Shown here in pieces: positions 7,860-44,154 of a stretch of DNA of 64,000 nucleotides (position 1 is its first letter; each line of letters opens with the position of its first letter). The notes below the pieces were generated by a model, which saw nothing but the letters and a program-made list of their open reading frames with translations, was not told the DNA's origin and made no database searches. The stretch is from Chiloscyllium plagiosum (Eukaryota), in assembly GCF_004010195.1 (NCBI RefSeq), contig NC_057753.1:14359937-14423936 (forward strand), read 5' to 3'. The position numbers were made by a program, and so were the translations under genes.

Positions 7860-9256
7860 ATGAAGGCGCAGATAAGATGAACGTTGATTATTCTAAAGTT
7901 GAATAAAATTATCCCAGGTGAGTTACACTAAATTGTCACCCTTGACTATCATGCGATCTTTTTGCAATTCCACTTTGTGTTATTACTTGATTTTGAAAAT
8001 AGACCATTTATTATTGAGTGTTGGTAAATAAGCATAAAAAGCAACTCCTTCCAAACCAATGACCACTATCATGTAGAAGGACAAGGGCAGCCGATAAGCA
8101 AGAGCACCACCAACTTAAGTTCATCTCGAAGTCAGTCCCCATCCGAACATGCAAATATATCACAGCTCCTTCAGCGTCACTGGGTCCAGCTTTGTCCACC
8201 CCTTTCTAAATGTTCCTTGTGTCTACCTCCACACGAAGCACTGCAGGCATTTCGAAAGGGAGCTCACGACGACCCTCTCCAGGGATATTAAGGATAGGCA
8301 CAAAATATTGTGTCCGCAAGTGGCGCCAAATCTCCTCGAGGAACAAATCACGGAATACCTAATAGCATCATGGCTGGCACGGTGGCTCAGTGGTTAGCAC
8401 TGCTGCCTCACAGCGCCAGGGACCCGCATTAATCTCCAGCCTTGGGCGATTGTCTATGTGGAGTTTGCACGTTCTCACTGTGCCTTGCGTGGGTTTCCTC
8501 CAGTCAGGTGAACTGGCCATGCTAAGTTGTCCATAGCATTCAGGGATGTGTAGGTTAGATGCATTAGACAGGACCAAATGTTAAGTAATAGGTTAGGGGA
8601 ATAGGCTTGCGTGGCATAATTTTCCGATGGTCAGTGTAGACTTGTTGCAAACAAGGGCCTATTTCAACACTGCAGGGATTCTATTCTATAATTGATCAAT
8701 CAAAATCAGATATTTCTTCAAAGTAAATGTTTTGAACCTGACATATGGTGGGTTAATGTGAACGGTGCAGACGTCATTTTTGCTCTGCAAGATACTGAGA
8801 CGTTTTTTAATCATTTGAAAAGAAATAGTGCGTCTATGTGAAGAGGTACAAAATGTGCCCAATGGAATGAATAGCCAGTTTCCCCACTGGGACATACAGT
8901 GTCTTTCCAGGGTACTGGAAGCATGTACCCTTATCTCCTCTCATCATCTGTCCCATGGAGTTTGTTTCCACCTTACAGACCACCCGGTCAAAGAGTGGAT
9001 AACACCGTCTCCTCCTGCATTAGAGGCTGTGAAACTTTCATAAGTGACAATGAATTGAAGCAGCAGCACTCTACTTAACTTTTTCAAGTGGCACTGGTGG
9101 CGTGGTCGACGGGAGCCACAGTTTCCGATCGCTGTCGAGGGCAGCGTGGTGAAAGCAATGTCAGGTCACCCTTCACCGGAAGCTGAACTGCTGCACTTTG
9201 ACCAATTGTGCCATCGAGACAGAGAATTCTGCCCTCTCCCTCTGGATTCTGATCTT
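7860..9256 (+). pseudogene. Family-B V pseudogene B1 (leader 7860-7917, V exon 8979-9256)
   Basis: Leader MKAQIR*TLIILKLNKIIP-G|GTGAGT; acceptor TTACAG; exon reads DHPVKEWITPSPPALEAVKLS*VTMN*SSSTLLNFFKWHWWRGRREPQF...CTLT..IETENSALSLW; RSS-like CACTGTC-23nt-ATAGAAACT at 9257-9295. Confidence 0.75.
8372..8685 (+). mobile_element. HE1-like SINE within the B1 intron
   Basis: GGCACGGTGGCTCAGTGGTTAGCACTGCTGCCTCACAGCGCCAGGGACCC head; GGGATTCTATTCTAT tail. Confidence 0.85.
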
Positions 9257-9502
9257 CACTGTCATACAATCCAGTGAGCAGCCATTATAGAAACTCTAGG
9301 GAGACAGGAGATATACTCACAGTCTCAGCTACTCAAGCACGACAACCTTACAAAGGAGGAGCAACAATTGAGAGAAAATTCATTATGTGGAGGGGTCATG
9401 CTCGATTAGGAAGTAATCCATGAATCTTGATGGGTGAACATCTAGCATGTACACACTTTCTAAACAATCGGTTCAGCGACGCGATCGATACCTCTGGATC
9501 AG

Positions 9503-11325
9503 TTAGAACATACAACATAGAAGAGTACAGGCCCTTCGGCCGTCGATGTTGTGCAAACTAGTGAAACTAATCTGAAGCCCATCTAACTTACACTATTCAT
9601 TTTCATCCATATGTCTCCGAATGACGATTTAAATGCCCTTAATTTTGGCGAGAATACTACTGTTGCAGGCAATGCGTTCCACACCGCTACTACTCTCTGA
9701 TTAGGGAAACTACTTTTTATATCTATCCTATATCTATCACCCCTCAATATAAAACTCTGTCCCTTTGTGCTCGCCAGCACAATCCAAGGAAAACGGCTCT
9801 CACTGTTCATCCTATCTTACTCTCTGATTTTCGTTTATATGGAATTAAGTCAGCGCTCAACCTTCTTCTCTCTAATAAAGACAGCCTCAATTCCCTCAGC
9901 ATTTTAACATAAGACTTTCCCACCATACGAGGCAACATCCTGGTAAATGTCCTCTGAACCCTTTCAAAAGCTTTCACATCCTTTTTATAATGTGGTGACC
10001 AGAACTGTACGCAATACTACAGATCCAGCTGCACAGAGTTTTGTACGGTGGCAGCATGACCTCATAGATCAGAAACTCAGCTCCTCTACTAATGAAAGCT
10101 AACAAACCATGTGCTTTCTGAACAACCCAATCAAACTGGGTGGCAACCTTCAGGGATCTGTGCACATGGCATGGAGATCTCTGTGTTCATCCACACTACC
10201 AAAAATCTTACCATTAGCCCAGTAATCTTTACTCCTGTTACTCCTTCACACTTTTCTGCATTAAATTCGAATTTCCACATCTCAGCTCAGCTCAGCGGCA
10301 TATCAATGTCCCTCTGCAACCTGCAACATCCTGCTGCACTATCCACTACACCACCAACTTTGGCGTTATTCACAAATTTGCTAACCCATCCCTCAATGCC
10401 CTCATCCAGGTCATTTATAAAAATGACAACAGCGGTGGCCATAAACAGATCCTTGTTGTATACGACTAGTAACTGAACTCCAGGACGAACATTTCCCATC
10501 AGCCACCACCCTCTGTCTTCTTTCAGCTAGCCAATTTCTGATCCAAATCGCTAAAGCGCCATCAATCACATGCCTCCATATTTTGTGCAAGAGCCTATTG
10601 TGGGGAACCTTATGAAACGCCTTACTGAAATCCACGTACACTCCATCACCCGTTTCACCCTCAAACACCGGTTTGTTCACCTTCCCAATGAACTCAATAA
10701 GGTTTGTGAAGCACGACCTACCTTTCACAAAACAGTGTTGACTATTCCTAATCAACTTATTTCTTTCTAGATGATTATAAATCCCACCTCTTATAACATA
10801 TTCCAACACTTTACCCACAACCGAAGTAAGCCTCACTGGTCTATAATTGCCAGTGTTGTCTCTACTCCACTTCTTGAACAAGGGAACAACATCTTCTACC
10901 CTCCAGACTCCTGGCACTATTCCTGCAGACAGTGCATGCATAAAGATGAAAGCCAAAGGCCCTGCAATCTTCTCCCTGGCTTCCCAGAGAATCCCAGGAT
11001 AAATCCAATCCAGACCAGGAAACTTACCTATTTTCGCACTTTCCAGACTTGCTACCATCTCCAATGTGAACTTCAATCCCATCTATTTTTGTAGCCTGTG
11101 TCTCGGCATTCTCCTTGACAATTTTGCCTACGTTCAGTGTGAATGCTGATGAAAAATATCCATTCAGCACATTCCCTATCTCCTTTGACTGCACAATCCA
11201 CTTCCCTACTTACTCTAGTCATTCTTTTATTCGATATACCATAGAAAGCCTTAGTATTTTCCTTGATCCTATCTCCCAACGACTTTTCCTTTCCCCTCCT
11301 GGCTCTTCTTCCCTCTCTGTTTTAG
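9503..11325 (-). mobile_element. CR1 LINE fragment (RT and 3' end)
   Basis: ORF 10411-11082 contains GNYRPVRLTSVVGK...VYVDFSKAFHKVPH; (TAGAACA)-type tail near 9503. Confidence 0.9.
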
Positions 11326-11413
11326 GTGAGGTAAGAAATCAGATCTATGTGACCGAGAAGTAGAAACTACCACAGCCCAACAATAGTTTCTAAGAAACAC
11401 AAGTGTAACTCAC

Positions 11414-11474
11414 CTGAATTGACTTAATTCCAGATAATCAGCATAATCAATGTTAATCGTTGCTCTGTCTGCAC
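11414..11474 (-). pseudogene. Orphan inverted family-B leader exon
   Basis: Reads VQTEQRLTLIMLIIWN*VNS-G|GTGAGTTACACT; homologous to the leaders at 7860 and 21754. Confidence 0.65.
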
Positions 11475-14400: not shown

Positions 14401-15290
14401 TGTGTCTTTATTCCCATCTGTAAAACATAAAAAGTGACTTCTTCCTCCACGACAAGCAATCCTTAAGCGACTGAAAAACTACCCAACGCATATCCTGTTT
14501 TAACAAACCGAATTGAAAACTCAAAAGAAAATACACTACCGCTTGCAATTCGCAGATGTTGAGTTCAACAATTCTAAGTCCAAACTGAAATTAGCAGTTT
14601 TGATCCGGGTCAAACTGCCAGTTTGTTATCGAACACACCAGACCCATTCAAAATGTCTTAAGAAGGTAGAATACACCCTTTCATTCCATTGTTATTTTAC
14701 ACGTAAACATCAAGTGCTATGCCGATGCAATTTTATTGGTCAAACCACTCGATGTTAAGCAAAACATTATTTAGTCAACCACTGTAATTGAAATAAAATA
14801 AATCAAGACGAACTTACAATAATTTATGCCTATTGGAAAACTGTACAAAATAATAGATAATCTTACTACTAAACAGTAACTTTTCTAATTTAGTAACATC
14901 CAATAAACGCTGCTGTGGCAAAAATGCAAATTTAGAAAAGCACATTGTCTCCTGTGCAATCTATTAGCAAGAAAGAAATGCATGTACCAGCTACAATCCA
15001 GGAGAAAAGAAGGCCAATAGATAATTCTCAGTGGGGGAGGGCAACCCGAAGAGATTTACTGACTTCCAATCCTTCTGAGTCTCCAGGAACAACTGCTGAA
15101 AGCTTACTGAAGAAAGTCCTAAATCTGTAAGAGATTGCCCATACCCTCACAGGTTATTTCTATTATTCCAACTTTTAAAAAATAACCAAAACCTCACAAG
15201 TTGTTTATCTTCTCATCGGATGTTCGGTACTCGCTTCCAATCTCTGCAGAAAGAGTAAAGCACACCTCTTCAAAGCACAGTATCGTCACT
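11475..15290 (-). mobile_element. Decayed Gypsy LTR retrotransposon, Gmr1-like (INT upstream of RT); probable LTR at ~14625-15290
   Basis: On the minus strand: integrase zinc finger HELSGGDHL...YWP...CHACQ (~13090-12960), core VLIDYVRPLP (~12880), STKFNPFALVFGHE (~12300), then RT start SPIVLVSKPD..GLCVD (11740-11475). Confidence 0.75.
12588..12682 (+). mobile_element. Truncated HE1-like SINE head inside the Gypsy element
   Basis: GCAGCACGGCGGCACAGTGGTTAGCACTGCTGCCTCACAGCGCCAGAGACCTGGGTTCAATTCCC. Confidence 0.85.
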
Positions 15291-15789
15291 CACACATACT
15301 CTCAGAAACACACACACACACACACGAAGTAAATGCACACAGCTTCATGTGATCACGCTGTTGATGAAATGATTAATGCAACTTTCCATCAATGCAATCA
15401 AATCAGCATCTTCAGCCATTATAAATATCCCTTCTCAGTAATCCTCTGTGATGTCTCTCGGTACTCCATTCTCACTATCTTCTGTGGGCGATGAGGATGG
15501 GAAACTCAGAGAAGGAGCTGTCTCCCAGTTCACTAATCAGAGAAGAGCGAAGTGTTGTTTATGGGGATTAGAATGCGTGTGTTCACACAAGATTCAATCC
15601 TGTGTCTGTGCTATGGTCAGAGTCTGCTGCTGATTTCCTTAGCATTTCCAGGAAACAGTTTGGTTTCAGTGTGATGCAAGGTTAATTTGGTTTCCTTTTG
15701 GTGAAGGTAGGAACTCCTGAAAGCACATCGTAACTTTCTGAACATCTGCGAAAAAAAACATCAGACCGATAATTCTATGATGCAAAGAC

Positions 15790-15828
15790 AATTTTTGTAC
15801 AGGGGGGAGACTGATTGTCACCACTGTG
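15790..15828 (-). other. 23-RSS of V2
   Basis: CACAGTG (15822-15828), 23-nt spacer, ACAAAAATT (15790-15798). Confidence 0.95.
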
Positions 15829-16284
15829 CGGGCCCAGAAAGCGCAGTAATACACCGCAGCATCAGCCAGTTCGAGCCCAGTGATAGTCAAACTGGTGAAT
15901 TTATACAAGGTCTGAAGTTCGATGGAGAAGCGACTTTCAGCAAAATCTGCTTTGTCCTCATAACCAGCATAAGTTTTCAACGCTATGTACTCGGGCTGTG
16001 AGTCTGGATGCTGTCGGTACCAGAATAATGAATATTTGCTCAATGTAGTATCATAGGTACAGCTTAGAGTCACTTCCTCTTCTTCTGTCCGAATATCTGA
16101 GGAGAGTGACTGAGTGACAGAATCTCCATGACTCAGGTCTGAAAGAGAAAACAGACATGAATTGTAAAGCGTCAGAGTGGCCTCAGTTTGAACGATTATT
16201 TGATAACGCAATAAAAATTGGATTTCATGCATGTTGACCTGTTAGATTTGCTGCCCACAAAATCCAGATGATGAGTGTCCACAT
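15829..16284 (-). CDS. TRAV/DV: TCR alpha/delta V segment V2 (family A), open frame; leader 16239-16284, V exon 15829-16138
   Basis: MWTLIIWILWAANLT-DLSHGDSVTQSLSSDIRTEEEEVTLSC...WYRQHP...DAAVYYCAFWAR; intact Cys/Trp/Cys; splice donor is GTCAAC (weaker than paralogs). Confidence 0.9.
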
Positions 16285-16764: not shown

Positions 16765-16955
16765 AAAAATATGGAGTGTAGATGCTGGATATCAAAATCG
16801 AGAATATGGTGCTGAAAAAGCACAGCAGGTCAGGCAAGCTCCGAGGAGCAGGATAATCGACGATTCGGATAGGAATCAAGAGCTTATGCCCAAAATATTG
16901 TTGTTCCTTGGATGCTAACTGATCTGCTGTACTTTTCTAGCACCACACCCTCGAT
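16765..16955. repeat. Palindromic interspersed repeat (same family as ~5335-5540 and ~60870-60990)
   Basis: GGTGCTGAAAAAGCACAGCAGGTCAG ... CTGATCTGCTGTACTTTTCTAGCACC inverted arms. Confidence 0.6.
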
Positions 16956-21753: not shown

Positions 21754-22540
21754 ATGAAGGCAGAGGAGCAATTAACGTTGATTATCCTCAAGCTCAATGG
21801 AATAATCCCAGGTGAGTTACACTTTAGATTCTCACCCCTAACCGTCATGTATTTTTTAACGGTTTCATTTTGAGAAAGAATTGTCACTGGAATTGGGTGC
21901 TCGGAAGTAAGAGAAAAAAAATAATTGCAGCACCTTCCAATCCAATGGCCACTTCGGTCTAGAAGTACAAGGGCAGCTGATAAGTGGAAGCACCACCAAC
22001 ATCAAATTCCCCGGCAATTCACTCACCACACTGACTTGGAATTTAGGGCATTTCCTTCAGTGCTGCTATGTCAAATTCCTGTCCTCCAATCTCTAACGGC
22101 TCCCTGGGTCTACCTCGTCAACAACGAAAGTATCGATTTGAAAAGGCACCACTACTTTCTCTACGACTATTTGGAACAGGTAACAAACACTATGCCATCC
22201 AGCGATGCTCACATCATCTCAGGCGTCTAATCACCCAATAACTAACTGCATCTTTGGTGCTTCATGTCAAGACATTTTCTCAGAGTGAGTATTAAAAAGC
22301 AAAGTCTCTGTCATGTACTGTGATAATGTGAATGGTGTAAGTATCTTTTTTTTTTTTAACTGCCATATTGTAAAGCCTGAGGGTGTGAAGGGATTAGACT
22401 TCATTAAAATCAGTTTGAGAAGATGCGGAATGTCAAAACATACACCACGATATGCCCATTGGAACGAATTGCAAGTTTCCCCATTGTGAAATACGACGTG
22501 TTTCTAGTGAGTTGGATGCTTGCGACATTCTCTTCATTGA
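21754..22540 (+). pseudogene. Family-B remnant B2: open leader (21754-21811) plus intron, V exon absent
   Basis: TATAGAG at ~21701; leader MKAEEQLTLIILKLNGIIP-G|GTGAGT; intron 3' part (22440-22535) aligns with 8850-8940 but stops before the acceptor. Confidence 0.65.
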
Positions 22541-23150
22541 AGACATACTCAAACACTCACAAATACACAGACACATCGACACACATACACTTATAAAAAC
22601 ACTCACACACATACACATATAGCCAATTGCCATGTTATGTTTGACGCAAATGGATACAGTTCCATGTGAGCAAATTAATGAAGAAAGGATTGCTGTAGCG
22701 TTCCCCCAATACGATCAAAACCGCATCATCAGTCATTCTAAAACCCCGCCCTAAGCAAACTGCTGTAGGGTCTCTGAATGCTCCCCTCTCTTGACCTTGA
22801 GTAGGCGATGAGGATGTGAAAGTCCAAAAAGGAGAGCTGTCTCCCAACAGGCTGTCTACAAATCACAGCAGAGCAAACCGTTGGTGGCAGAGATCAGAAC
22901 GAGTTGTGTCTTTCATCATTCTGTTCTGTCTCTGTTCGTATGCTCAGATTTTGCAGTTTATTTTCTCAGTTCAGGAAAACAGTTCGGTGACAGTTTGAAT
23001 CAAGGTTAGTTTGGTTTCGTCTTGGCGTTTGGTTAGGCCCCTGAAAGCACAGATTAATTTCTGACACTCTACAAAAACCTCAATAAATGCAACTATCTAT
23101 GGTCCAAAAACAATTTTTGTACAGGAGACAGACTGTTTATCATCACTGTA

Positions 23151-23604
23151 TCACTGCGAGCGTAGTAATACATGGCCGAGTCAGTCAGTTCTAGCCCAGT
23201 GATAGTCATGCTAGCGAGTTTCTTCGAGATTTGAAGTTCCGCTGAGAAGCGACTTTTAGCAAAATCAGCTTTATCCTCACAACCATTCGTCTTTATCAAC
23301 AGTATATACTCCGGCTGTGTTTCTGGGTGCTGTTGGTACCAGTAAAACTTGTAAGCTGCTCAATGTAGTAACATAGGTACACCTTAGAGTCACAGCTTCT
23401 CCTTCTGTGCGACCATCTGAGGACAGTGACTGAGTGACAGAACTTCCATGACTTGGATCTGAAAGAGTAAACGGATATCATTTGTAAATTATCAGTCTGG
23501 GTTCAGTTTAAACGGTGATTTGAAAAAGAAATGTACAATGGATTTCCTCTACATTTATCTGCTACAATTGTGACTCATACTACCCAGATGCTGAGTAGAC
23601 ACAT
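23151..23604 (-). pseudogene. TRAV/DV: TCR V pseudogene V3 (family A)
   Basis: Stop in leader, donor GT>AT, frameshift near CDR1, second Cys>Tyr (YYYARSD), RSS heptamer TACAGTG (23144-23150) with nonamer ACAAAAATT (23112-23120). Confidence 0.92.
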
Positions 23605-25615: not shown

Positions 25616-27306
25616 GTTGTGCTTTTTTTTAACCTCAGTTCCCCAATTGATGACAATTCTTGTTCTTAACCAGTTTCAGCCTGCCTCCAAATTGTCCACG
25701 CCACCCCTGAGATTTCAACCCCACCCATATAGCTTGTGACTCTACAAAAAATTCTTTCTCAAATTCCAGTCACCCCTGGCACATCACAGGACACAACCTC
25801 AACCTTATCCAGCAAAATCGCTTTTTCCAGATTCTTCTTTATTTTGGACATCAATTTCCGCTTCTGTGTCCTCAGACCCAAGCCCTCTGTTAGTTTGCTT
25901 CAGAATTCTTCATTGACTTAAGTATCATCTTCCTTCATCGCTGCTGTGGGTGCTTTTCTGACTCACTAAACACAGAGGCCTCACAGAGAAGGATCCACTG
26001 TATATGTGAATGATCTAATAGAAGTTATCTTCAGTTTAAGTGCACTCTGTATTTGTGCGTGCGCGTGCATGAGTACTCGTGCGTGCTTTTGTACAATGGG
26101 AGATGATTTTCAAGGCTTTGATGGAATGGTAAAGAGTCAAATCCTCTGTGGTTGCACTTCAATCCGTGTTTTCTTTGATACCATGTCAACCTTTGCTGGT
26201 GGCGTGAAGGTGTTACAAATGCTCACACAACGGAAGTTGCCAGGGAATTACTTGGAGGGAAATCAACAAAAGTCAGCACCCAATCTAACAGCAGCATCAA
26301 CAAGCAAACGCATGATAGGTATGGGGATTAGTTACGACCAGTGTGAAGAGTACAGAGGGGTCAATGTGGTAATTACAAAGTGGGTGAGTTTACGAAAACA
26401 CACGTGGTCAGCGCATAGATAACAGATTCATCTAATCACGTAAACATAATCACATGCTTCAGTTTGATCACATCTGACTTCTAATCTCAGCAGAGTGAAG
26501 GCCCAGACTGTCTGGCTTTTCCATATGTATTTTACACGTGAACAGATTTATCACATAGACTCCATTATAAGTGATCCCTCTGAGAAAAGAAATTCCGCTT
26601 CATTTCTAACTTTGATTTGCGATGCTTCATCCTGTGAATCTGCTCCAAGATTTTCCAAAGGGGATAATAACTTTTTCTTGTCTGTTCTGTCAAGTTTTCA
26701 TTGCAAACCTACAGAGCATGTGGGATTTGAAGGTGTGCCTCCTGACTCAGATATTGAAGCTACCACAACGTCATAGCTCCCTCCATGCAGCTCGCATCAT
26801 ACACTGCCGAATTGTTCTGATGTCGATAAACTCAAAAGATGTTTGTTCACGTTAAATTCTCTCCACACCCCTAGTCCTGGAGATACGTTATCACTCTTGC
26901 CCTCTGTTAGTTTGATTCATTTGTTTGTGAATCGGAACTGGAATAGTTAGAGACTTGAAACTTCAAAATTGGAGATGAATGTCTGGTTTGTTAATTGTCA
27001 CCCACAAATCAAGAAATTAGGCATGTTTTCCAGCAATAGGAATACATCTGAAGTGCAACATGATATTCTGACATGATTTTGTTCTGTGCCTGCACGCGTG
27101 CTCAGCAGTCAATTTTCTCAGCAGCTCAAGGAAACGGTTGAGTGACAGTTTGATACGAGGTTAGTTTGGTTTCCTCTCGGTGGGACTTGGAACTCCTGAA
27201 AGTACATACGAACTTTCAGAGACTCTGCAAAAACTCCAATAATTAGATCAATCTATGGTACAAAAGCAATTCTTATACAGCGGGGCGACTACTTTCCATC
27301 ACTGTG

Positions 27307-27759
27307 AGGTCGTAGAAAGCGCAGTAAGACACGGCAGTGTCAGTCAGCTGCAGCTCAGAAATAGTCAAACTGGTGAATTTGTTCCAGATCTGAAGTTCTA
27401 CAGAGAAGCGACATTTGGCAAAATCTGCTTTATTTTCATAGCCAGTAGTACTTTTCATTAATGTATACTCAGGATGTGTGTCTGGGCGCTGTCGACATCA
27501 AAGTAATGAAAAGGTGCTTGATGTGGTATCATACATGCAGCTTAAAGTAGCTACCTTTCCTTCAGTCCGAACATCTGAGGAGAATGGCTGACTGACAGAA
27601 TCTCCATGACACGACTGGAAGGGAAAAAAACATCAATTCTAAAATGTCAGGCTATCCTCAGTTTTAACAATGATTTGCAAACGTAATATAGATTAGATTT
27701 CCTCCACATCTACCTGCTAGAATTGTTCCCCACACAATCGAGATGATGAGTAACGGCAT
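27307..27759 (-). pseudogene. TRAV/DV: TCR V pseudogene V4 (family A)
   Basis: Leader MPLLIISIVWGTILA (27714-27759); 2-nt deletion at exon start; conserved Trp>TGA; ends DTAVSYCAFYDL; RSS CACAGTG (27300-27306) with degenerate nonamer ATAAGAATT. Confidence 0.92.
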
Positions 27760-30010
27760 TGTCGCTTTCCTCTATGTAACAGTGCACTCAAATATTTGAA
27801 GACAGACTTTTTTTTGCCCCACTTTCAGTAAACTTCCAATATGCCTCTGCAGCCTCCCCTCACTGCCTTGTGGCGGCCCTGATGCTTTGTGTGCAGGAGG
27901 AACAGAAAAGATTCTCAATGAATTTACACATCCCAACCTGGGTTACAGTGACTGCACCTAAATTGGAAGACTGAAACTTCTGATAGATTGACGTCCATTC
28001 ATGATAATCAATTCCCCAGATTCAATGCAACCTTTACTCTCAAAACTCTGGTCTTTTCGTTGGAAATGCTTCAACTGAAGCCATATTTGTGCATAGGTGA
28101 AACCTGGTTATTTGTATAACCAATTAAGGGGTTGCCCACAACGCCCCGAGATTGCCATCTCACACATTAACGTTACAATCCCATAACGGGGGGTTTAAAC
28201 TAACTCGGCAGGGGCATGGGAACCCAGATTGTAGCTTCAGGGTGCAGGGCCTGGAGTGTAGGGTGAAATTGCAACCTCTTCATCCGCATCACTGGACTCA
28301 ATCTCGAAGTTATCCAGCAGTATCTCTAAAATCTCTTTTACCCAATTGTCCTTTATTATGGTCCTCTCTTTCTGTTTCTCTGTTCTCCAAGCTCAAGATT
28401 TTTTTCTCTCTCTCTCTCATTCTCTCTCTGTCAGTTCTCCTCAGAATTCTTCATTGAGCTCAGTTTTACATTTCTTCCTCCCGTCTGTGGATGCATTTTC
28501 CGACTCACTGAAAACACACACGCCTTACGCAACATAATCCACTGTATCTCTGATTAATGATAAAGTGGCTATCTTAAGCACACTCAGCATCTGCCGCTGA
28601 GTGTATGCGTGTGTGTGCGCGTGCACGCGCACGCACCACCGCAAGTGACTCTCCGTGCAAGGGGAGATATTTAGAAGAGCTTTGACTTAATTTTAAATGG
28701 TCAAAGCGTCTTTGCTTTGCACTTCAATTTGTGTTTAAAGAAATACAATATCACCCTCTGCAGGTGGCCTAAATTTATTACAACTGACCATCGTAAAAGT
28801 CGCCAGGGAATCAGTGAGAGGGAGAGCAAGAGCACAAACCAGCATTCATCCTGACAGCTACGTCAACACACATACCCACACTCATACACATACACAAACA
28901 GGGTAAGTGTGAATGTTAGTGTTGACCCGTATAAAAAGGACAGAGAAGTGATTATGAGAATTAAATAAACAGTCAGTGCGAAGAAAACAGATATGGTCAG
29001 CACGTGGATTACAGATCCAGCTCTTCAAATCTTCTAAGGATGTTTCCTGTTTCAATTCAATCACGTCTGACTCTCGAAAACCCGCGCGAATACAAGCCCA
29101 GCCTTTCTAGTCTTCCCATGTCGATCTCATATTCAGCACCCAAACTCGGAGGTAAATCATTCCACAGCTTATTTCCCCTCTGAGAGAAGAAATGTCTCCT
29201 CTCCTCCAACTTCAATGTGTCATTCCTTATTCTAAGATTACGCCTTCTGGTCCTATGTTATCCAATAGTGTGATTCTCAGTCAAAATCATCTTGTCCTTT
29301 TTTCAAATTGAAATTCTGAGGCAACATAGCTCCTGGATTTGTAAAACACGTCCTTTATTATTGAATGTTGGGTGCTAAGCAAAAACAAACTGGCAGCACG
29401 TTTCCAACCAACGACCATTTACATCCAAAAGGCCAATGGCAGGAGATAAACGGGAACACAATGACTCACCATTCTGGCATGAAAATGTAACGCCATTCAT
29501 TCAGTGTCATTTTATGAAAATCTTGCCATTCACTCTGCAACAGTTCCGTCTGTCTACATACACGGGACCTATGACAGCGACTTCAAAAGGCATCTCACAT
29601 TTACCTTCTCCAGTTGTACGAAGAGTGAGCAAAAACACTATGCCTGCCAGCGAAGCACGCATCTCCTCAGGGAACATATCATCCCACAGCTCACGGCATC
29701 ATTGGATAATGAAGTCGACATTTTTTCTAAAAATAAATGTTGAGAATCAGAGATTCTGTCAAATGCCAGGCTAATGTGAGTGTGTAGGTGTGTTTCTTTT
29801 TTTAATTGCCAGAAGACAATCACAGGAGGGTGATGAAAACAGATTTTGTTTTTAAAAAGTTATCTTGAGAAGAATCAGGATGTGTGAACATATACCAATC
29901 CATGTCGATTGAAATGAAAGGCTAGTTTCCGAGTGGAAAAATATAATGTGTTTCCACTGAGCAGCATGTTTTTATCCTTCTTGCCTCTCACCATTTCTCC
30001 CACGTTGCAG

Positions 30011-30278
30011 ATCTCATGCCCAAACAGCGAGCTCGCAGTGTTCCCAAGCACTGGTGGCTGCGGAAGGCACCTCGGTGAGAATGACTGCAGAGCAACTCCT
30101 TGCAGTGGGGCCGCTGGCATGACAGACGTAAGCCACAAATTCTGAGCGCCACTTTGGCCAGCGTAGTCAGAGCAGGGAGGATTCCAGCCACTCTTCGCTG
30201 ACAGCAGAAACACAGCTTTTTTGCTGTCCGAGAAATCAGGAGACCTGATGCAGCCACATATCTCTGTGCTGTGATTAT
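30011..30278 (+). pseudogene. Family-B V pseudogene B3
   Basis: Acceptor TTGCAG; frameshifted SQALVAAEGTSVRM-C ... EIRRPDAATYLCAV; RSS-like CATCATG-23nt-CCAGAAACT at 30279-30317. Confidence 0.82.
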
Positions 30279-30616
30279 CATCATGTTACAACTGAATTGG
30301 CAGCCAGTCCAGAAACTCCGGGGACATAGGGAGCTATACATATAGCCTCATCATCTCAATGTCAACAACTGCGTACAGAGAAAATGATCAATGAGATAAA
30401 GTGAATGTTGCCAAGCTTTTATTTGAAATTTGGAAATATTCCCCATGATTTATAGTCTAGAGAATATAGAGCGTTGCCATTTCGAAACAATGTGTTCAAT
30501 GACTTGATGAAATACATTTCGAGCTGGTGAGTCTTGAACTGAAATCTATTTGGATTTGATTTAAGCATATTGCTATTGCAAATCAGTAACTCCTAAGAAT
30601 GAAAAGTGTAACTCAC

Positions 30617-30810
30617 TTGGGTTGATTCCATTCAGGGTAATGGCGATAATCAATTTTAATTGCATCTCTAGCTTTATGCCCTCTTGACAGGAGTGCAACA
30701 CCGAAAACAGCAACAACTCTCCTCTTTATAGTGCTTACGCAGGCCAAACAGGAAATGGAACTGGTACGCTCCCATTCATGCAATGACCAAAGGCAAATGT
30801 CCGGGATCAC
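30617..30810 (-). pseudogene. Orphan inverted family-B promoter/leader exon (leader 30617-30677)
   Basis: TATAAA at 30725-30730; leader reads IKLEMQLKLIIAITLNGINP|GTGAGTTACACT; upstream sequence aligns with 7745-7860. Confidence 0.7.
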
Positions 30811-31640: not shown

Positions 31641-32529
31641 CCAACTGCCATGTTGTTGATTCTTAAGTTCCTTCTCGGAATTTGGGTCTGCAATAAATGC
31701 AGTGACGCCCTCATCCCATGAATGAGTAAAGAAAAGAAATGAATATCTATTTTTGGTCCATGACAACATGTTATCCCCTGTCCGTTGAAGTTGACTGTAA
31801 CCCTGTAACGTCTTACATGGTATTTTTTCGAAAGATTTCAGGAAAATCAAATTTTGAAAATAGAGTGACTCAACATTATCTGCTCCACTCGTTAAATCCT
31901 AAAATAGAACTCCAGTGCGTCTGTTAAAAGTAATTTTCCTGACATAGAATTATACTTTTTTTTCCCAATTGCGTCAATACTTTCTAAATATTGTGTTATT
32001 TCAATATAAGTAGTGGTACATGCACTTCGCAAAGAATTCAGGAGTGACAAGGAGATAGTTTAATTCAACAATAATTTGTAGTGATTTGAAATCAACTGCA
32101 TTATGAGATTCTGAAGCCATTTCCATTCCTGTTTTTTCTCAAATGGTAGATGGTTAGAATCCAGGAATCAAACTTTATGAATGTGTGCTGTAGAGAGAAT
32201 AGGAGAGTGAGGTTATCTCAATTATGCATTTCAGGAGGAGCGATGCAGCTAGGGCCAACTGACCACATCCCGGAAGTTCCCATTCTGGGATTTGAGGAGG
32301 ACTTGGGGCTCCAAAGAACAGGAGTCAAAGTTTCAGTCTAACACAACCACCAAGTTCGCATCAACATCTTCAAAGTTAGCAGCAATTGCACATAATTTGC
32401 ATGAATGTGTGTGTGTGTGTTTTTCTGTGAATTTTCACATACTTGTCAGGGGTTTTATTTAATGTTAAAAAGATCAAAGCCCCGGTGACATTTTCATCAC
32501 TTTGTGTTTAAAGTGACAAATTTGTCTTG

Positions 32530-32687
32530 CTGGATGGGAGCCAGAGCTTCTGATCACCACTTCGGTCAGTGTGGTCAGAGTAGGGAGGGTTTACGGTACT
32601 CTTCACCAGGTGACATAAACACAGCACTTTTACCATCTGCAACATCGGGATATAGGATACCGCTGTCCACCTCTGCCTGATAATCAT
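32530..32687 (+). pseudogene. Family-B V remnant B4 (3' half only)
   Basis: STFTICNIGI*DTAVHLCL; RSS-like TACCATG-23nt-GCAGAAACA at 32688-32726; downstream flank aligns with 30330-30600 and 43870-44140. Confidence 0.72.
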
Positions 32688-33308
32688 TACCATGATGCAA
32701 CACAATGAACAGTCAATGCAGAAACACGGGAAGACAGGTCTTATATCGACCACTTCACCATTTCAACTCCACCAATCTTACAGACGAGCAGCAATGACTA
32801 AGTGGAAAGGAATTTTGTGGAGCTCCCGTGTTCAATATTGAAATACTACATGAATCTTAATCAGTATGAATTAAGAGTGCATCTATTTTCTAAACAAACT
32901 GTTCAAAGGTCCTATGCACACTTCTAGACCAGGTGACACTAGAAACAGCATCTATTTGACTGTGTGAGGGACAGATTCTGTGCACATCAGTAGCCCCTAA
33001 GAATCTCAAGTGTTAATGAGAGTTGTACATTGCTGAGGTTGGGGATTAGAACGAGTGCCTTCACATATGATTTGTGCTGTGTCTCTGTGTGAATGTTTGA
33101 AGTCCACAGTTTATTTTCTCATCAGCTCCGGCTAACAGTTGGGTAACATGTTGATCCAAGGTTAATTTGGTTTCCACTCAGCGTGACTTTCAGCTCAGGT
33201 CAGCACTTTGGAATAACCCGGAAATTCATAAGAGTTCCAACAGATAGAAATCTATCTATGGGTCAAGGACAGTTTTTGAACAGGGATGAGGATGCTTCTA
33301 TAAATGTA

Positions 33309-33759
33309 TCAACGCTAATAGCGCAATAACGCACGGCAGAGTCAATCAGCTGTAGCCCAGTGATTATCAACCTGGTGAACTTGTTCGAGATCTGAAGTTC
33401 TGCAGAGAAGCGACGTCCAGCAAAATCAGCTGAATGCTGATAACCAATATCTGCATTCCTCAGTATATGCTCTGGTTGTGTGCCTGGATACGCACGTTAT
33501 CAGTCCAACATAAAGCTGTTCGTTGTCGTCTCAGAGGTACAGCTCAGAGTCACTACCTGTCCTGTACAAATATCTGAGTAGAATGGTTGAGTGACAGAAT
33601 CTCCATGACTCAGCTCAGAAACGAGAAAAAAAACAGTTCAATTATGGCAGATTGGCATTGGATTAAAATATGATTTGAGAAAGGAACGTAAAATGGCTTT
33701 GCTCCACATTTCCTTGTTAGAATTGCTTCCCATTCAATCCAGACCCTGAGGAGCCACAT
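33309..33759 (-). pseudogene. TRAV/DV: TCR V pseudogene V5 (family A)
   Basis: Leader MWLLRVWIEWEAILT with donor GG; acceptor AG>TG; TGA TAA in place of WY; heptamer destroyed; nonamer TCAAAAACT at 33271-33279. Confidence 0.9.
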
Positions 33760-36302
33760 TATCATTCTTCTCTGCATAGCAGAGCAGTCGGATATTTCAA
33801 GACGCATAGTCTATAAACTCGTCCTCAGTGAAATGCTGACATGTCTCTGGAGATTCTCATCCCACTGCATTGAGGGCAGGTGGAAGCGAGAAGGGTCTCA
33901 GAGAATTGACACATCCTGATCATGGTTACGGGTGCTACACTTAAAATGTAGCGTTGAGAAATCTGATGGACTGACTTCTATCCATGATAAACACTTGCCC
34001 AGATTCACATTAGCCTTACTCTCAAGACTCATCTTCATCTGCCCAACTTAACGAAATGACTCCATTTTATGTTCTCCAGCAGTTCAAGGCTGCCTGCAAT
34101 GCCACCCTGTTTGCCAGATATCTACCCTACTTGCACAGCCTCACAAACTGTCCGCTCTCAAATTACAATATCTCAAAGTCCATCTCCCGCATCGCTGAAT
34201 TTAATTTCACACTTACCCTGCAACATCTCTGATACTGACTTTTTTTTGCATTGTGATTGTCCTCTAATTCTGCTTCCCTTTACTCAGGCTTAAAATTATC
34301 CACTTCCGTCTTTTGGTTTATTTCAGAATCCTTCTGAGCTCAGTCTCACTTTCATTCCACACCTTTATGGGCGTCTTTCTCTTTTCTTGAACACAGAGAT
34401 TTCACATAACCGAACATACTGTACATCTGAAAGATGCTGGAGTAAATGTCTGAGGTACCAGCACCCAAAGTGTCGGTCTATGTATGTGAGTTTCCATATA
34501 TCTAATTATGCTTAAGTGTATTCCTCTGTGTGTGTGTGTGTGTGTCTTTTTTGTATGCGTGAGTCTGTACATACGAATTAAGTGCTTATCACTATGCACG
34601 TGTATTAATGTTTAGGTTTTCAGATCTTTTGGAGGCATTTACGTGTATATTTTGGTATGTGCATTTTCACTGTGTGTTATTCTGTCAGTCTCAGTGTTTG
34701 ATTAGAAACATGTTCAAATGATTTTATGAACGTTCATCAAGAATTTAATTATATGGATAAATTGTCAGTTCAGAAGCAGAAGGTTGATGCTGTAGGAGAT
34801 AAATTGACTACAGAAATGATAATAAAGAAATCACGTGAAGCAATATCAGTCTCTTTCACCATATTTGTACTGTGTATTGAACGGTATAAAATGCGACCTC
34901 CTGCTCGTGGCTCCCTCCCACTCCATAAGTGGAAGATAAAAATCATCAGGGACTCACTCAGAGGGACAGCAGACGCAGACCACAATATTCAAAATGAACG
35001 GGAATCATGTAGACACAGTGTGCAGTCTTTGATGCTCTCTCTTTGCACGTCAACTTGATAATCAAAAATCCAATGTTGATATATTAATGTTTATTTTGTC
35101 CTTTGTTTCTCTTTGCTCACATGGTCTTCATTGCAAATACCCCTTCCCCACCCCCCATTTCATTTTCCTGCCATTCCCAGTTTGTTAAGAAGTTGTCTTT
35201 GCTCAGACTGAGTTTAAGAATCAGAGATTGTGCATGGAAACAGATCTCCCAATGAAATGAGGCGTATCATTAAAATGGATAATATGTTAGGTTCTCCTCG
35301 ATGTGGCTTATACTTCAAGCTGCCCTTACTGTGGCTGGAAAATGTTCGTCAGTTATTCATTTGTTCGTGACAACTAGCAGACCAAGCATTCATCTCCACC
35401 ACCGTACTTGAATGTGCGCAACTACCTCCAAAGAACATCATTAATCATCCTCAAAATTAGACTATGTTATTGAAGGGCCAGATATCTACTGACAAATGGT
35501 GGTGAACAAGCATGTTTTGTGTTTCTCAGAATGAGATTAATTACTCGTCATGCAAGCAAGGTGAGTGGAGGAGTCTTGTGGCGTCGTGGTTTGCATCCAG
35601 ACCTTTGAGTTGGGAGACCCGTGTTCCAGTCCCACCGGTTCCAGAGGTGTGCCATAATACCTTGGTAGCATAACGTGGAAAAGTTGTTGCTCAATGCAGA
35701 AATGATTAGGACGAAGTGTGCAATCCTAGAAAGATGGGTTATAAAATTAAGACAGAGAGGAGGAGAAATTTCTTCACACAAAGGGAAATGAATATGATCA
35801 ACGATTTACCACAGAGGCTAGGTTGGTAGGTGTATTCAAGTTTGAATTACACAGATTCATTAGTAGGAAGGGAATCAATTGTTATGTAAAAAATGCAAGA
35901 AAGTTCAGTTAATGAATATCAGGTCAACAATGATCTCATCGAGTTCTGTATTGGGGACAGTGAAAAACATTGCATTTTATCGACTTTTTTTTGCTTGTCT
36001 GGATTTGATTAGACTAACTATATTCCTTTACATAATCGTTAGCCCTGCTCTCTGACAATGTCAATGCCCGGATATCAGAAGCGAAGCTATTGCTTGAAAG
36101 GTGTTTGTAAACAATACCTTGTTGTGCAAAGTCTGGATTGAAACATCTGTGTATTCATCATCGAAGCAAACTATCAAATGAAGAATCGATATGTGCAGAT
36201 TTAAGACAATGTCATGTCGCTAATACTTGTTAATTTATGGTCTCACCAACCAAATTCAATCTGAGTTGACTGACAGAGAGAAAAGCCAACATCACGCGCG
36301 TG

Positions 36303-36305
<3 letters not shown>

Positions 36306-36357
<52 letters not shown>

Positions 36358-36386
36358 ACACACACACATACACACACACACACACA
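36306..36386. repeat. (CA)n microsatellite
   Basis: About 80 nt of near-perfect CA repeat. Confidence 0.95.
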
Positions 36387-36917
36387 CGTCATATTGTGTT
36401 GTAAGTAACAAGATACAAGACGACGTGATCACAACAAGGATGAGAAATGTTTCAGCGTTCTATCAAAATACTTGAATCAATATTTCCAGTCACGCTCTAT
36501 CTACAACGTGGCCTTCAGTAATGTACTGTCGTCTTTCCATATGCTCACACTTCATTCATTTGTGTCAGCAGTGGGGGTTGTGAAACTCGGAGAAGGAAAA
36601 CCCTTTCCCAGCTCACAGTCTAAATTGCATGCATCAACAGATTGGTGGTGGTGGGAATTCGAACGGGAGCCTTCAAGTATGATTCTGTTCTGTCTCCGTG
36701 TGCCTGCTGAGTGTGCAGTTAAGTTTCCCAGCAGCTCTGATACGCAATAGGGTTACTGTTTGGTCCAAGGTACCATTCGTTTCCTCTTTGTGCGAGTTTG
36801 AGCTCCATGTATTCCATTCTAGCTGCCCGTAAGCCAGACAAGTTCCAACTGATTGATATTGCAACACCATTGGAAGGTCTTTTTAGGACACGTCTCATGT
36901 TGTTTCCCATAACTATG

Positions 36918-37371
36918 AGTCGCACAGCATGCTTGAATACATAGCAGAGTCAGTCAGCTGTAGCCCGGTGACAGTCAAACTGGTGGATTTATTCGTTGTC
37001 TGAAATACTCAGAGATGCGACCTTTAGCAAAATCAGTTGAATGCTTATAGCCTTTATTGTCATTCCTCAGTATACACTCAGGCTATGTGTCTAGATTGTT
37101 TCACTACCAAAGTATTTCAAAGCTGCTCAACGTAATATTGCATGTACAGGTTACAGTCAATGCCTTTCCTTCTTTCTGAATATCTGAGGAGAGCGACTGA
37201 GTGAAAGAATTGCCAAGACTCAGGTCTGAAAGGTCAAACTGAAATTAATTGTAAAACGTTTGGTTGGTGTGAAATTGGAAGATGATTTAATAAAGGAATG
37301 GGAAACGTCGCCCCTCTACATTTACCAGTTCGAACTGGTCCCAACACACACCAGATGCTGAGTAGATGCAT
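36918..37371 (-). pseudogene. TRAV/DV: TCR V pseudogene V6 (family A, V1-like)
   Basis: Leader MHLLSIWCVLGPVRT (37326-37371); TGG TAG TGA at WYR; second Cys lost; RSS degenerate (CATAGTT); promoter region resembles that of V1. Confidence 0.9.
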
Positions 37372-39399
37372 TTTCGCTGCCACTTCTGTAACAATATTTG
37401 AAGATACCCATTTTGAAACACCAACCGTAAATGTTGTCGTCTCCCTGGATGTTTCGACCTCATTAAATGAATAAATGATTTGTAGTCACATGTATTTCGG
37501 CCAATGTGGTACAAGAAATGTTTGCCTTGTGTCAGCAGTGATTCTGAGAGTGCAGGAGGAGTGCCGAATCTCAGTAAGTTGAAAGACCCCGAACTTTGTT
37601 ACAATTACTCACCATAAAACTGAGGATCAAGCACTCTGATGGACTGACTTCGATCCATGAGAAGCAATTCGTCAGATTCCTGGTGCCCTTAATTTCAAAG
37701 CTCTATCGCTTTCTGTCCCACATCCGCAAAATTTGCCAGTAGCCACTTAATGGATGGCATCAAATTACCCACGTACGCCATCTCCTGCATTTTCACTGAA
37801 CACATACTTCTTGTGGCACCATCAAAGCCAAACTCAATTTTTTCCAGCAGCATCTCGGATATTAATTCAGAAGTTGATGACTATTGTTTTGGGCGACAAA
37901 TTATCTGTAAGAATGACAATGGTTTTTCCATGTTTTTCCTATTTTAAACTTGATACAATACCACCTTCAGCTGGGAGATATCTGCCATTGCAGAGGTCGA
38001 ATGTCAAACTATTCAAGGATTCAGTCAGAGGGGGACCAGCAACACGCAGCAGCATTCAAACCTGATAGCAGCAATAATTCACACAATTACCGGGTGCAAT
38101 CTTAATGAGTGATATCTTAATGTCTATTTTGTCCTCTGTTTCTCTTTCCTCGCGTGCCTACAATGTTGAACAGCCCTTCCGCCATCTCCCACGTAATTTT
38201 TACTCTTGTCAAAAACGACATTTGTTTTAAAGGTTAGGCATGCTTAAAATTAGCTCGTGCACAAAGGATACTTGTCTTACAGTGGATAAAGTGCACAATG
38301 TGATGATACCTATCATTAAAATACGCAACAATTTAGATTCTCCTCTCTGTTGCTCTTCAGACTGTCCTTCCTTCTCCTGGAAAATATTCTTTAATTATTG
38401 ATTTGTTGGTGACAATTAACAGACCAGACATTCATCACAATACCTGACACAAATGTATAGATCGTTTCCCAATAAATCATCACTGACATAATACAAAATT
38501 AGACTATGTTATTGCAGGGCTGGATGACTACTGAGAAATGAGCGTGAACAAATATGCATTGTGTTCATCACCATGAGAATGAATTTTTGGTACTGAAGCG
38601 TGATGGTAATTTCCCATCCTTTCAGTTGGGATGTTCACATGCAATGAAAAGTCAGCAAGGTAGTGCAGAAACGTTATTCGCCCCATGCAAGGGCTGAGGA
38701 CAAAGCAGTCCTCTTAAAGATTGGCATAAAGATGTACACAATTAAATCTGAAATGAACAGAAATTTCTTCTCTCGAAGGGAAATTAGTCTGAGGAAATCT
38801 TTACCACAGACGTTGGGCTGCTAAGTAAGTTAAACGCTGAGCCAGACGACTGTATTAGCATTAGAGTGATCAGGCGTTCTTTGGAGAAAACAGGACAGTG
38901 AAGTTCATATTTATTTAACTTCACGCTTCGCTGGGATGAGTGGTTCACTATTACTTCTATGACGTACGTTGCTAATTCTTTACAATGACGATATAGAGAA
39001 CGACAGATGTTGAAACATCATAGTGGATGAAGAGTTGGATTGGAAAAAGCACAACAGGTCAAGCAACATCAGAGGAGAAGTGGATTCGACGTTTCAGGTC
39101 GGAATCTTTCATCAGGGCTGGGGGAGGGGAAGGGGCTGCGAAATAAATAGAGGGAGTGGGTGCGACTTGGAGTAGGTTGGTGGGATGCATGTAGAGGATG
39201 GCTGTGATTGTTCAGTGGGAAGGGTGAAGTGGATAGGGGGGAAGGAATATGGACAGGTAGGGTCAGGATAAAGGGCCGGGGTGCAGAGAGAGGACTGGTC
39301 TTGGTTTGAGGTAGGGGGTGGGGTGATTTGTAAGCTGGTCATTTTTATGTTCAGGCTTTACAACTGAAACAAAATGACAGAGTAGGCCTTTCTTTGTGT

Positions 39400-42090: not shown

Positions 42091-42130
42091 GGTCTTTTCG
42101 ATTTCTATTCATTCTTGTCCATTCGCGGTT

Positions 42131-42395
42131 GAGATTCGTCTACAGTCTCCTGGATATAGGCACGGCCTGTGTAGCTTTGTTATGGGCGTATCAGTCTTGA
42201 ACGTACTTACAGCACAGCCTCTTGCAAATAATTCCAGTTTCATTTTCCTCTGGATGCCTGCTTATCTTTCTTAAATGTGTGTGTTTATATTCTGAGATTA
42301 GGCATGCGACTCCAAGATACTCTCACAGGTTGAAACGACATTTCCTGATTTATTCAACTTTAGAGCAAGTTTTCATGACACATTTCTACAGCAGT
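42131..42395 (+). repeat. ~265-bp direct repeat, copy 1 (copy 2 at ~44259-44524)
   Basis: Near-identical text CTACAGTCTCC..GGCACGGCCTGTGTAGCTTTG...ACACATTTCTACAGCAG at both positions. Confidence 0.9.
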
Positions 42396-43575
42396 GATAC
42401 TTGAAGGTAGGCCTGCTGACTCAATTTCGGGATATTACCACAAGTCGCAAGATCCCTCCACGCAGTTTACCCCTCGATTGAAGAATTATTCATGTGGTGA
42501 TAAATAAAAATAATCATACGTGATCACACTCACCTCTATGCAAATCTTCAGACATGGAATAACATCGAGTAATTTTGTGTTGTATTCCAACTGTTCTAAT
42601 TGAAATGGTTCCAGAGGTTAGAGTCCAGTTTGGGAGATGTATGCCTGGCATGTTGATCATCAAAGCAAATCAAGCATGTAATCGGGTTTTCCAGCATGAA
42701 GGAGGCAGCTGAAGAGGCGTTGCGAAGAATTGAAATTTGATTCCGCTTTTTAAAGATCAGCTTGATTCCATAATGACATCTGTCGATTCTGTTCGAGGCA
42801 ACGTTCGTTCACAAAGTCACACTGAGCGAACATGACGTCATGACAAAATGTGGGCTATGATTTTACTAAACTGACATGGGGGTAGGGGAAAGAAATCACC
42901 CGAATTACTGGCATCTCAACAAAGAGAAGCAAAGAAGAAAGAGACCTTAAAATACCAACAGGGAATTCGTGAATTTCAACTGTTTATTCAAGTTGAGGGA
43001 AGAAAAGAATGTACACTGCAAGTTGATGCTGTTTTCTGTTTGAATGGTGCCAGCACTTGTTGCTCTCGCTCTAGCAAGGATGAGTTTCAAATTTCTCCTG
43101 GCATCCACCAGCAGATGTTAGAAATGCGTCACACTGAGTTGAAGGGAGTGAAACAGGGAAACAGACTATGAGAAACAGTGACATAATTTTCTTGAAAATC
43201 TCAGGAGGTCTGTCAGTATCTGTGAAGTGAAATCAGATATAATGTTAAGGGACGAGGGACCCATCCTCAGAACTGGTTTCTCTACGCAGACGTTTTCTCA
43301 AAATTAATGTTGAGAATCTGAAATTAACACATGGCAGGATAATGTCAACGATGTAAATGCATTTTTGTTTTAAAGAACACTAACAGGTTGACAAGCACAG
43401 GGACGCTAAAGGAACAGATTTTTAAAACAAAACACTGTGAATAAATGGAATTGTGAATATGGAATAAACGGTCAGTGTACCCATTGGGAAATACAATGTG
43501 TTTTCAGGGTGCTGGATGCTAATACCCTTATCTCCTGTCATCAATTCTCCCATGGGGTTTGATTCCATGCTGCAG

Positions 43576-43829
43576 AGCTCCTGCCGAAAGAGCTGATACC
43601 GCAGTCTCCTTTTGCAGTTATGGTCGTGAAAGTCTTCTCAATGACAATGAGCTGCAAATCTAACACTTTAATCAACTTGGTGAAGTGGTGTGATGGGAGC
43701 CGCAGCTTCTGATCTTCAGTAGCCTGACCAGGGAGGATGCAGGCCACTCTTCGCCAGGAAATGCAGCACTTTGACCATCAGAGACAATGAGTGAGAGGAT
43801 CCCGCCGTCGTCCTCTGCGTAGTCATCCT
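43576..43829 (+). pseudogene. Family-B V pseudogene B5
   Basis: Acceptor CTGCAG; LLPKELIPQSPFAVMVVKVFSMTMSCKSNTLINLVKW ... STLTIRDNE*EDPAVVLCVV; RSS-like CAGCACG-23nt-ACAGAAAAC at 43830-43868. Confidence 0.8.
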
Positions 43830-44154
43830 CAGCACGATACAAACCAATCAGCACCCAGAACAGAAAACACGTACAGACAGGAGCTGTACTGACAGCCTCA
43901 CCATCTCAGCAAAAACAACCTTACAGAAGACCAGCGGTAATTGAATGAAAATAAATGTTGAGGAGCTCCTATTTTCAATTTGAAAGTATCACATGAATCA
44001 TAATTCGTCAGAATTTAGAGTACATCGATTATCTAACCAACCTGTTCAGAGGTGTTGTGCACACCTTTAGACTAACTGAATCAATAAACTGGATCTTTTT
44101 GATCAAAAGGTCACTCCACATCAGTAACCACTAAGAATTCCAAGTGCAACTCAC

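Follow-up and report, generated by a model that had tools for sequence, protein, structure and literature searches.

What is a second family of variable (V) gene segments, every copy of it broken, doing among the oppositely directed V genes of a shark, and by which route would either family have reached its joining (J) segments? This question is raised by a 64,000-nucleotide (nt) stretch of Chiloscyllium plagiosum (assembly GCF_004010195.1, contig NC_057753.1, forward strand, 14,359,937 to 14,423,936), hereafter the window, to which all positions refer. An earlier note on this DNA, made from the letters alone, had described the second family, here called B, as a hidden V-gene family on the plus strand, paired head to head with the minus-strand family A and expanded by duplication of a divergent two-V cassette. 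We regard it as probable that B is a broken second V family in the alpha/delta array of the shark T-cell receptor (TCR), spread by duplications of an A/B cassette and facing J-alpha, with family A joining by inversion. The B features are given below, where X and Y are conserved non-coding spacer blocks, RSS is the recombination signal sequence and chiPu_0019012 is a Chiloscyllium punctatum protein described further on.

7860–7917, plus strand: L1, B leader exon of 58 nt, phase 1, interrupted by a stop; donor GTGAGT at 7918
7918–8978, plus strand: B1 intron, 1061 nt, with a short repeat at 8377–8485
8979–9256, plus strand: B1 V exon, a pseudogene with stops and one frameshift that lacks both Cys codons
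9257–9295, plus strand: B1 RSS; CACTGTC, 23 nt, ATAGAAACT
21754–21811, plus strand: L2, B leader of 58 nt, intact; agrees with the leader of chiPu_0019012 in 13 of 19 residues
21812–22533, plus strand: B2 intron remnant, V exon deleted
29333–30010, plus strand: what remains of the B3 intron, fused to spacer X after deletion of the leader
30011–30278, plus strand: B3 V exon, a pseudogene that keeps DAATYLCAV but has one stop, and frameshifts in its 5' part
30279–30317, plus strand: B3 RSS; CATCATG, 23 nt, CCAGAAACT
32507–32687, plus strand: B4, a B exon reduced to its 3' part by deletion of the 5' part
32688–32726, plus strand: B4 RSS; TACCATG, 23 nt, GCAGAAACA
42366–43575, plus strand: spacer X/Y and B5 intron remnant, leader deleted
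43576–43829, plus strand: B5 V exon, pseudogene; internal deletions, stops, a frameshift, both Cys kept
43830–43868, plus strand: B5 RSS; CAGCACG, 23 nt, ACAGAAAAC

The four exons B1, B3, B4 and B5 can be aligned end to end, match each other with E values of 1e-11 to 1e-34 and share 58–65% of their DNA letters, so that the four homologous plus-strand exons first reported hold at their coordinates; of the remnants then counted, B2 is a leader and intron without an exon. AG acceptors lie 5' of B1, B3 and B5. In all four exons the 7-mer starts 15 nt from the Cys104 codon position and is followed by a 23-nt spacer and an AGAAA-type nonamer, as had been described, in degenerate form: the heptamer CAC is retained in B1 only, and none of the four signals passed a strict RSS scan, for which reason we call them RSS by position and not by strength of match. 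Both DNA runs differ from the window within the B5 signal, at 43835 in the heptamer (C to T) and at 43854 in the spacer (C to G); with the letters of the runs the heptamer stays non-canonical. The leader, phase-1 intron and V exon are all present in B1, L2 is intact, and the gene model of chiPu_0019012 has the same layout. Both L1 and L2 end at GTGAGT donors, and measurement bears out the distinct 58-nt leader and long intron, the latter 1061 nt in B1 compared with 88–100 nt in the seven family-A genes measured. The B leader (L1, L2 and chiPu_0019012) has a short hydrophobic core interrupted by a basic residue and, judged from its sequence, is atypical as a signal peptide even in the intact C. 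punctatum gene.

A B profile built from seven unjoined fragments and searched against 1.84 billion proteins gave 27 matches, the best of which, C. punctatum chiPu_0019012 (P0009), covered the whole profile with 101 bits (E 2e-24), followed by a second-best match of 58 bits. This protein comes from an open frame on a contig of 272,995 bp and consists of a leader that is 68% identical to L2, a V-set domain (Pfam E 7e-11) with both Cys and W41, and a read-through into RSS-like sequence; its gene has a 58-nt leader and an exon of 272 nt to the Cys. Frameshift-aware scores of the four B exons against it range from 143 to 169, with maxima of 32–45 among 20 shuffles each, at 45–47% identity over an aligned stretch that includes RSS and flank. 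Against a V sequence found only by way of family A, B3 scored 43 (shuffle maximum 28, 8 shuffles) and B5 scored 30 (shuffle maximum 27), while the B profile weakly matched seven of eight family-A relatives (best 24.8 bits). The residues C23, W41 and C104 (IMGT numbering) are all present in chiPu_0019012, and the window copies retain subsets of them. The likeness of the B exons to V genes thus goes beyond chance at the sequence level, upholding the immunoglobulin (Ig) V-domain identity that had been proposed for them, and the window copies are paralogues, not orthologues, of chiPu_0019012, A7 being 84% identical to its own C. punctatum match. Each aligned copy carries 1–4 stops and 1–3 frameshifts, which makes all B exons of the window pseudogenes; together with the deleted exon of B2 this agrees with the view that every copy here is dead, though not with extinction of the family, which is likely alive elsewhere given the open frame of chiPu_0019012 and its likely identity with the transcribed gene TRAV33 (class F, see below).

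The B copies are interleaved with the nine genes of family A, and relatives of the latter are rearranged TCR chains; the locus name TCR alpha/delta is taken from comparisons with the accessible parts of PMC5931798 and PMC10322711.

3534–4016, minus strand: A1, V gene; 46-nt leader, 88-nt intron, RSS with 23-nt spacer, open frame
15790–16284, minus strand: A2, V gene, open frame
23112–23604, minus strand: A3, pseudogene; donor GT changed to AT, frameshift, Cys104 lost
27268–27759, minus strand: A4, pseudogene; stop at the W41 position
33266–33759, minus strand: A5, pseudogene
36880–37371 (left end approximate), minus strand: A6, pseudogene
45042–45536, minus strand: A7, V gene, open frame, Pfam V-set E 3e-13
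55331–55783, plus strand: A8, pseudogene, 0.7 kb right of an assembly gap
61526–62017, minus strand: A9, V gene, open frame

Eight of the nine thus lie on the minus strand, half of which (A1, A2, A7 and A9) combine open frames with CACAGTG-23-nonamer signals, and only the pseudogene A8 lies on the plus strand. The closest protein to A7 is C. punctatum chiPu_0028691 (83–84% identity), and four of the eight family-A relatives (P0003, P0004, P0006 and P0007) are rearranged chains with J motifs. The A7 region (44928–45591) has a depth of 11.8 in DNA run X1 and 98.5 in X11 and is matched by up to eight contigs; from this depth and the multiple look-alike contigs, recent A7-like copies exist elsewhere. 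The 845-N gap at 53769–54613 adjoins A8, the plus-strand orientation of which is either a real inversion or due to a mis-oriented contig.

The relation of the two families becomes visible in the conserved non-coding sequence between them, made up of the region upstream of family A (U) and the spacer blocks X, Y and Z, of which the following copies lie apart from those listed above.

6525–7859, plus strand: blocks Y and Z, upstream of L1
19912–21753, plus strand: blocks X, Y and Z, upstream of L2
34685–35845, minus strand: inverted copy of blocks Z, Y and X, upstream of A5
38110–38908, minus strand: inverted copy of blocks Y and X, upstream of A6
62985–63440 (63.0–63.4 kb): inverted spacer-block copy, upstream of A9

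A1/B1 and A2/B2 and, with a deletion, A4/B3 run from A through U, X, Y and Z to the leader, the intron and B, and spacer stumps lie behind A3 and A7. A1, A2 and A4 are thus the copies for which collinear spacers support a duplicated A/B cassette. For the fourth head-to-head pair of the earlier note (V6/B5, here A6/B5), the inverted spacer block at 38110–38908 interrupts collinearity, so that collinear spacers back the proposed cassette in three of its four pairs, and B4 has no head-to-head partner. A copy of U at 60553–61131, just left of A9 and without an A exon, is a further decayed cassette. Contigs of independent runs span the inverted blocks at 34685–35845 and 38110–38908. Inverted Y copies are 63% identical to each other compared with 58–60% to forward copies, and inverted X copies 59% compared with 46–54%, while the Z blocks show no closer likeness among the inverted copies. 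The B3 and B4 junctions are not assembly artefacts either, as a same-species contig spans 29031–30282 (X, intron and B3) and a related-species contig spans 32526–33228 (B4, the remnant of an inverted B-type leader treated below and the A5 flank). A six-frame scan of block consensuses for a V exon hidden in X, Y, Z, U, the B intron or the B 3' flank gave nothing above 2.6 bits, compared with 48.7 bits for the B exon as control, which is partly circular since the profile included chiPu_0019012; frameshift-aware scores for such an exon in the spacers were at shuffle level. Contrary to the picture in the earlier note, strand is not exclusive to either family: the plus-strand A8, minus-strand B-type leaders and inverted spacer blocks make V orientation in this locus mixed, and it has been reshuffled more than once.

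No J, diversity (D) or constant (C) segment was found in the window by motif scan, and the orientation of A and B relative to J is therefore borrowed from another species. Supplementary Table 2 of PMC10322711, to the accessible part of which the following applies, gives the C. punctatum TRA genes with their strand and marks transcribed ones as class F. TRAJ_001–106 and TRAC lie on its plus strand. TRAV33, the last V before TRAJ_001, is of class F, also on the plus strand, with an intron at 59–825 (767 nt), an exon of 272 nt to the Cys and the RSS at 15; 7,150 nt away and back to back with it lies TRAV32 on the minus strand, likewise F, with an intron at 47–144 and a 296-nt exon as in family A. 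The only other entry with an intron start at 59 is TRAV05 (exon 254 nt, RSS 14). Family-A geometry (46-nt leader, 88–100-nt intron) is shared by 12 entries at 531–953 kb, of which 11 are on the minus strand and five of these F. The A genes of the window are spaced much like TRAV24 to TRAV27_2 (12.3/12.0, 19.6/19.3, 23.7/25.6, 41.5/43.2 and 58.0/60.4 kb, window first), and A1 and TRAV24 both have an 88-nt intron. The family-A relative P0005 is chiPu_0019013, the next locus number after chiPu_0019012, on a contig that is equally long (272,995 bases). By this cross-species comparison of geometry, B likely faces J directly and would join by deletion, family A being inverted. That the two families would use different routes is upheld; that the dead family needs the unusual one, as the earlier note implied, is not supported by the table, where the gene of B geometry lies on the TRAJ/TRAC strand and A-type genes are mostly inverted and transcribed.

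Several points weigh against this reading. The window has none of the segments that would fix its orientation, and only three of six spacing-matched genes (A1, A2 and A7) agree with the table in RSS position. The likely identity of chiPu_0019012 with TRAV33 is drawn from geometry and not from sequence; P0005 has its RSS at 18 compared with 15 in TRAV32, and consecutive locus numbers are consequently no proof of direct neighbours. Within its accessible part, the table has most rows without an intron, joins three scaffolds without stated boundaries and places J entries after TRAC on both strands. A word-index search with residues 1–113 of chiPu_0019012 returned only the protein itself (one of 23 candidates), hence no second close relative or cDNA, and among solved structures TCR alpha chains and kappa chains lie at about the same distance from it, its best matches being light-chain and TCR alpha domains, with the heavy-chain V domain far lower in the one alignment shown. 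Block identities, finally, are near 55–70% and saturated, so the order of duplications is not resolvable.

Taken together, the history that we favor would run as follows. Old duplications of a back-to-back A/B cassette likely spread family B. Provided that the window is oriented to J as the C. punctatum block is, B likely points the same way as J-alpha, so that deletion would have brought it to J and inversion would be the route of family A. The window B copies may then have decayed by ordinary birth and death. Such decay suffices to explain them, given that four of the eight A copies on the minus strand are likewise dead and that conservation in the B exons (58–65%) does not exceed that of their flanks (54–71%); B may for the latter reason even have been copied after its death.

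The loss of B could also reflect selection on the joining route, since a V gene that joins by deletion takes out the other V genes, and possibly TRD, that lie between it and J. A cassette-built array would then have kept its inverted alphaV4-type genes and lost the direct-facing member in every internal copy, as joining by that member destroys the V pool for secondary rearrangement, so that only the J-proximal direct copy survives. In line with this, plus-strand V remnants of the window are dead in six of six cases compared with four of eight on the minus strand (one-sided Fisher p 0.07), pseudogenes among C. punctatum TRAV18–33 make up 4/6 plus-strand compared with 3/23 minus-strand entries (p 0.018), TRAV33 is the last V before TRAJ_001, and inversion keeps intervening genes for secondary rearrangement, as stated for salmonids in the accessible part of PMC8559430. 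However, copies that are not independent weaken both p values, the B exons are conserved no better than their flanks, and the distal TRAV01–17 (24 entries in the accessible table) include six transcribed plus-strand and five transcribed minus-strand genes. We therefore consider selection on the route unlikely, and this outcome for the array doubtful to the same degree; were it true, selection on the orientation of V genes would have left a natural record in the array.

Less probable still is the opposite assignment suggested by the earlier note, with A direct, B inverted, and B dead because inversional joining is disfavoured. It draws on the contrast between five of five dead B remnants and open frames in four of the eight minus-strand A genes, and on a window in which J and C are absent and orientation has to be inferred. 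The C. punctatum genes speak against it, as those of A type lie mostly opposite TRAJ/TRAC, five of them transcribed, and that of B geometry is on the J strand and transcribed; moreover, inverted V blocks are expressed in salmon (PMC8559430) and newt (PMC12698447), as far as the accessible parts of both papers go.

Under the favored history of duplicated cassettes, a further set of elements calls for explanation, namely minus-strand leaders of B type (L') that face back at each B RSS.

11414–11474, minus strand: L', an orphan leader of B type, 61 nt, without its start codon and with one stop; GTGAGT donor at 11413
30617–30677, minus strand: L', an orphan leader of B type, 61 nt, with ATA as its first codon; the donor lies at 30616
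32981–33013, minus strand: L' intron-start remnant abutting the A5 3' flank
44155–44214, minus strand: orphan B-type leader L', 60 nt with a 1-nt deletion; donor at 44154

These 60–61-nt paralogues of the B leader lie behind four of four B exons, some 300 nt behind the RSS of B3 and B5, as a remnant only after B4, and separated from B1 by an insert resembling a long interspersed nuclear element (LINE) in the case of 11414–11474. Their donor, CAGGTGAGTTACACT, is nearly invariant across the five leaders. A 277-nt direct repeat (94%) at 42120–42394 and 44248–44524 truncates, with its second copy, the region upstream of the 44-kb L'. The simplest reading is that L' is what remains of a third, B-related gene tail to tail with B, the exon of which was lost before the duplications; L' and the inverted spacer blocks would then be leftovers of this oppositely facing gene, with its V exon deleted, plus local inversions. 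TRAV06 of the accessible C. punctatum table (61-nt leader, 272-nt exon) may, going by geometry, be living kin. It is very improbable that L' elements are instead working parts, as an antisense promoter or leader facing the B RSS or as an alternative leader for a gene further left, even though they recur behind every B exon and no other 15-column window in the alignment of the five leaders is as well conserved as their donor region (4 mismatches, compared with no fewer than 7 among 230 Y windows and 8 among 90 X windows). The first ATG is gone from each of the three full copies, one carries a stop and one a deletion, conservation is equal in 2 of 74 windows of the family-A 3' flank, and V-like sequence is absent beyond any L', as 15 of 16 scores stayed at the level of the shuffles or no more than 3 from their maximum and one was 37 compared with 29.

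That B is a family of repeats or transposons in which V-like words arose by chance can practically be dismissed, because the points in its favor (no Pfam match for any of seven single B fragments, none of 20 candidates in a word-index search of longer proteins with the B3 fragment, and the weak RSS matches) are outweighed by an intact V relative at E 2e-24, exon scores of 143–169, the preserved order of leader, intron, exon and RSS, the RSS–Cys distance fixed in four of four copies and the single-copy-like depth of B3 and B4 (1.5–5.6 in X1 and 10–15 in X11, up to five orders below the 1e5–1e6 of repeats). Depth bins over B5 are raised by flanking repeats and uninformative, and two single-cell runs consulted for RNA, of which 2% and 6% were read, had reads essentially only on repeats and none over the intact A7 bin either. 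Two other V systems were considered and rejected for B. In shark Ig light-chain (IgL) clusters, J and C lie within a few kb of V according to the accessible part of PMC12227049; next to B no J or C was found, the single FGxGT/WGxGT match in the 64 kb falls within LINE-like sequence, and a strict scan of the window yielded no RSS with a 12-nt spacer. The V-delta segments that support new antigen receptor (NAR)-TCR are not known to have a leader of their own and are spliced from an upstream NAR-TCR V-D-J, whereas B1, B2 and chiPu_0019012 each have their own leader and no J upstream. As to TAILV, IgH-like V or NAR-TCR V, which would be VH-like or VNAR-like in sequence, the comparison covered the solved structures named above, where chiPu_0019012 aligned best with light-chain and TCR alpha domains. 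Elsewhere in the window, a 2.4-kb tandem duplication (93%; 47639–50030 and 50024–52430) in LINE-like, reverse transcriptase-like sequence could be a recent duplication or uncollapsed haplotypes.

The B copies of the window are real, unannotated pseudogenes of a known kind, in a locus type for which mixed V orientation has already been published. What they add to the shark TCR alpha/delta locus is an unannotated V pseudogene family and a cassette history; the understanding of V(D)J recombination is unchanged. Antigen receptor loci routinely hold pseudogenes, tandem cassettes and genes in mixed orientation. The published C. punctatum table holds an unremarked point, in that the large shark alphaV4-type family likely rearranges by inversion like teleost TRAV, which would make inversional alpha/delta joining old. 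The literature searched describes no head-to-head two-family V cassette and no orphan inverted leaders for a shark TCR locus; subscription papers on nurse shark, catshark and bamboo shark lay outside this search, and these or supplements not seen may already show V orientation.

Among known systems, C. punctatum TRAV33 comes closest to B in leader, long intron, exon length, RSS position, strand and its back-to-back minus-strand A-type neighbor. It differs in being classed as transcribed, whereas the window copies are all broken paralogues, and in its intron (767 nt compared with 1061 nt in B1); the accessible table also lists no plus-strand entry at the matching 624–685 kb, unlike the window. 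Two short-CDR2 (complementarity-determining region 2) V-set genes with a similar length pattern that the B profile matched, chiPu_0025496 (P0020) and Callorhinchus A0A4W3GAJ6 (P0022), are only 24% and 32% identical to chiPu_0019012 and belong to other families. In the nurse shark (PMC5931798), the aV4 rows resemble family A by eye, alphaV4 being a multi-member germline family used in alpha and delta chains, while B resembles none of the 72 rows accessible out of 447. Two short B motifs had no match in that table, a search of low power given gapped rows and cut cells, nor in the 11 of 19 supplementary files of PMC10322711 that were covered, and the words "orientation" and "inversion" do not occur in the accessible text of the nurse shark paper. 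In teleosts, V genes of TRA/TRD are inverted relative to J–C, with a salmon block in the other orientation and both expressed (PMC8559430), and newts have expressed inverted V clusters (PMC12698447); inversional joining is inferred for the expressed inverted genes of both groups in the parts of these papers available. The TRAV, TRDV and TRBV loci of salmonids and newts thus resemble the window in holding both V orientations in one locus, but there orientation switches by large blocks, whereas in the window it alternates gene by gene within a two-family cassette.

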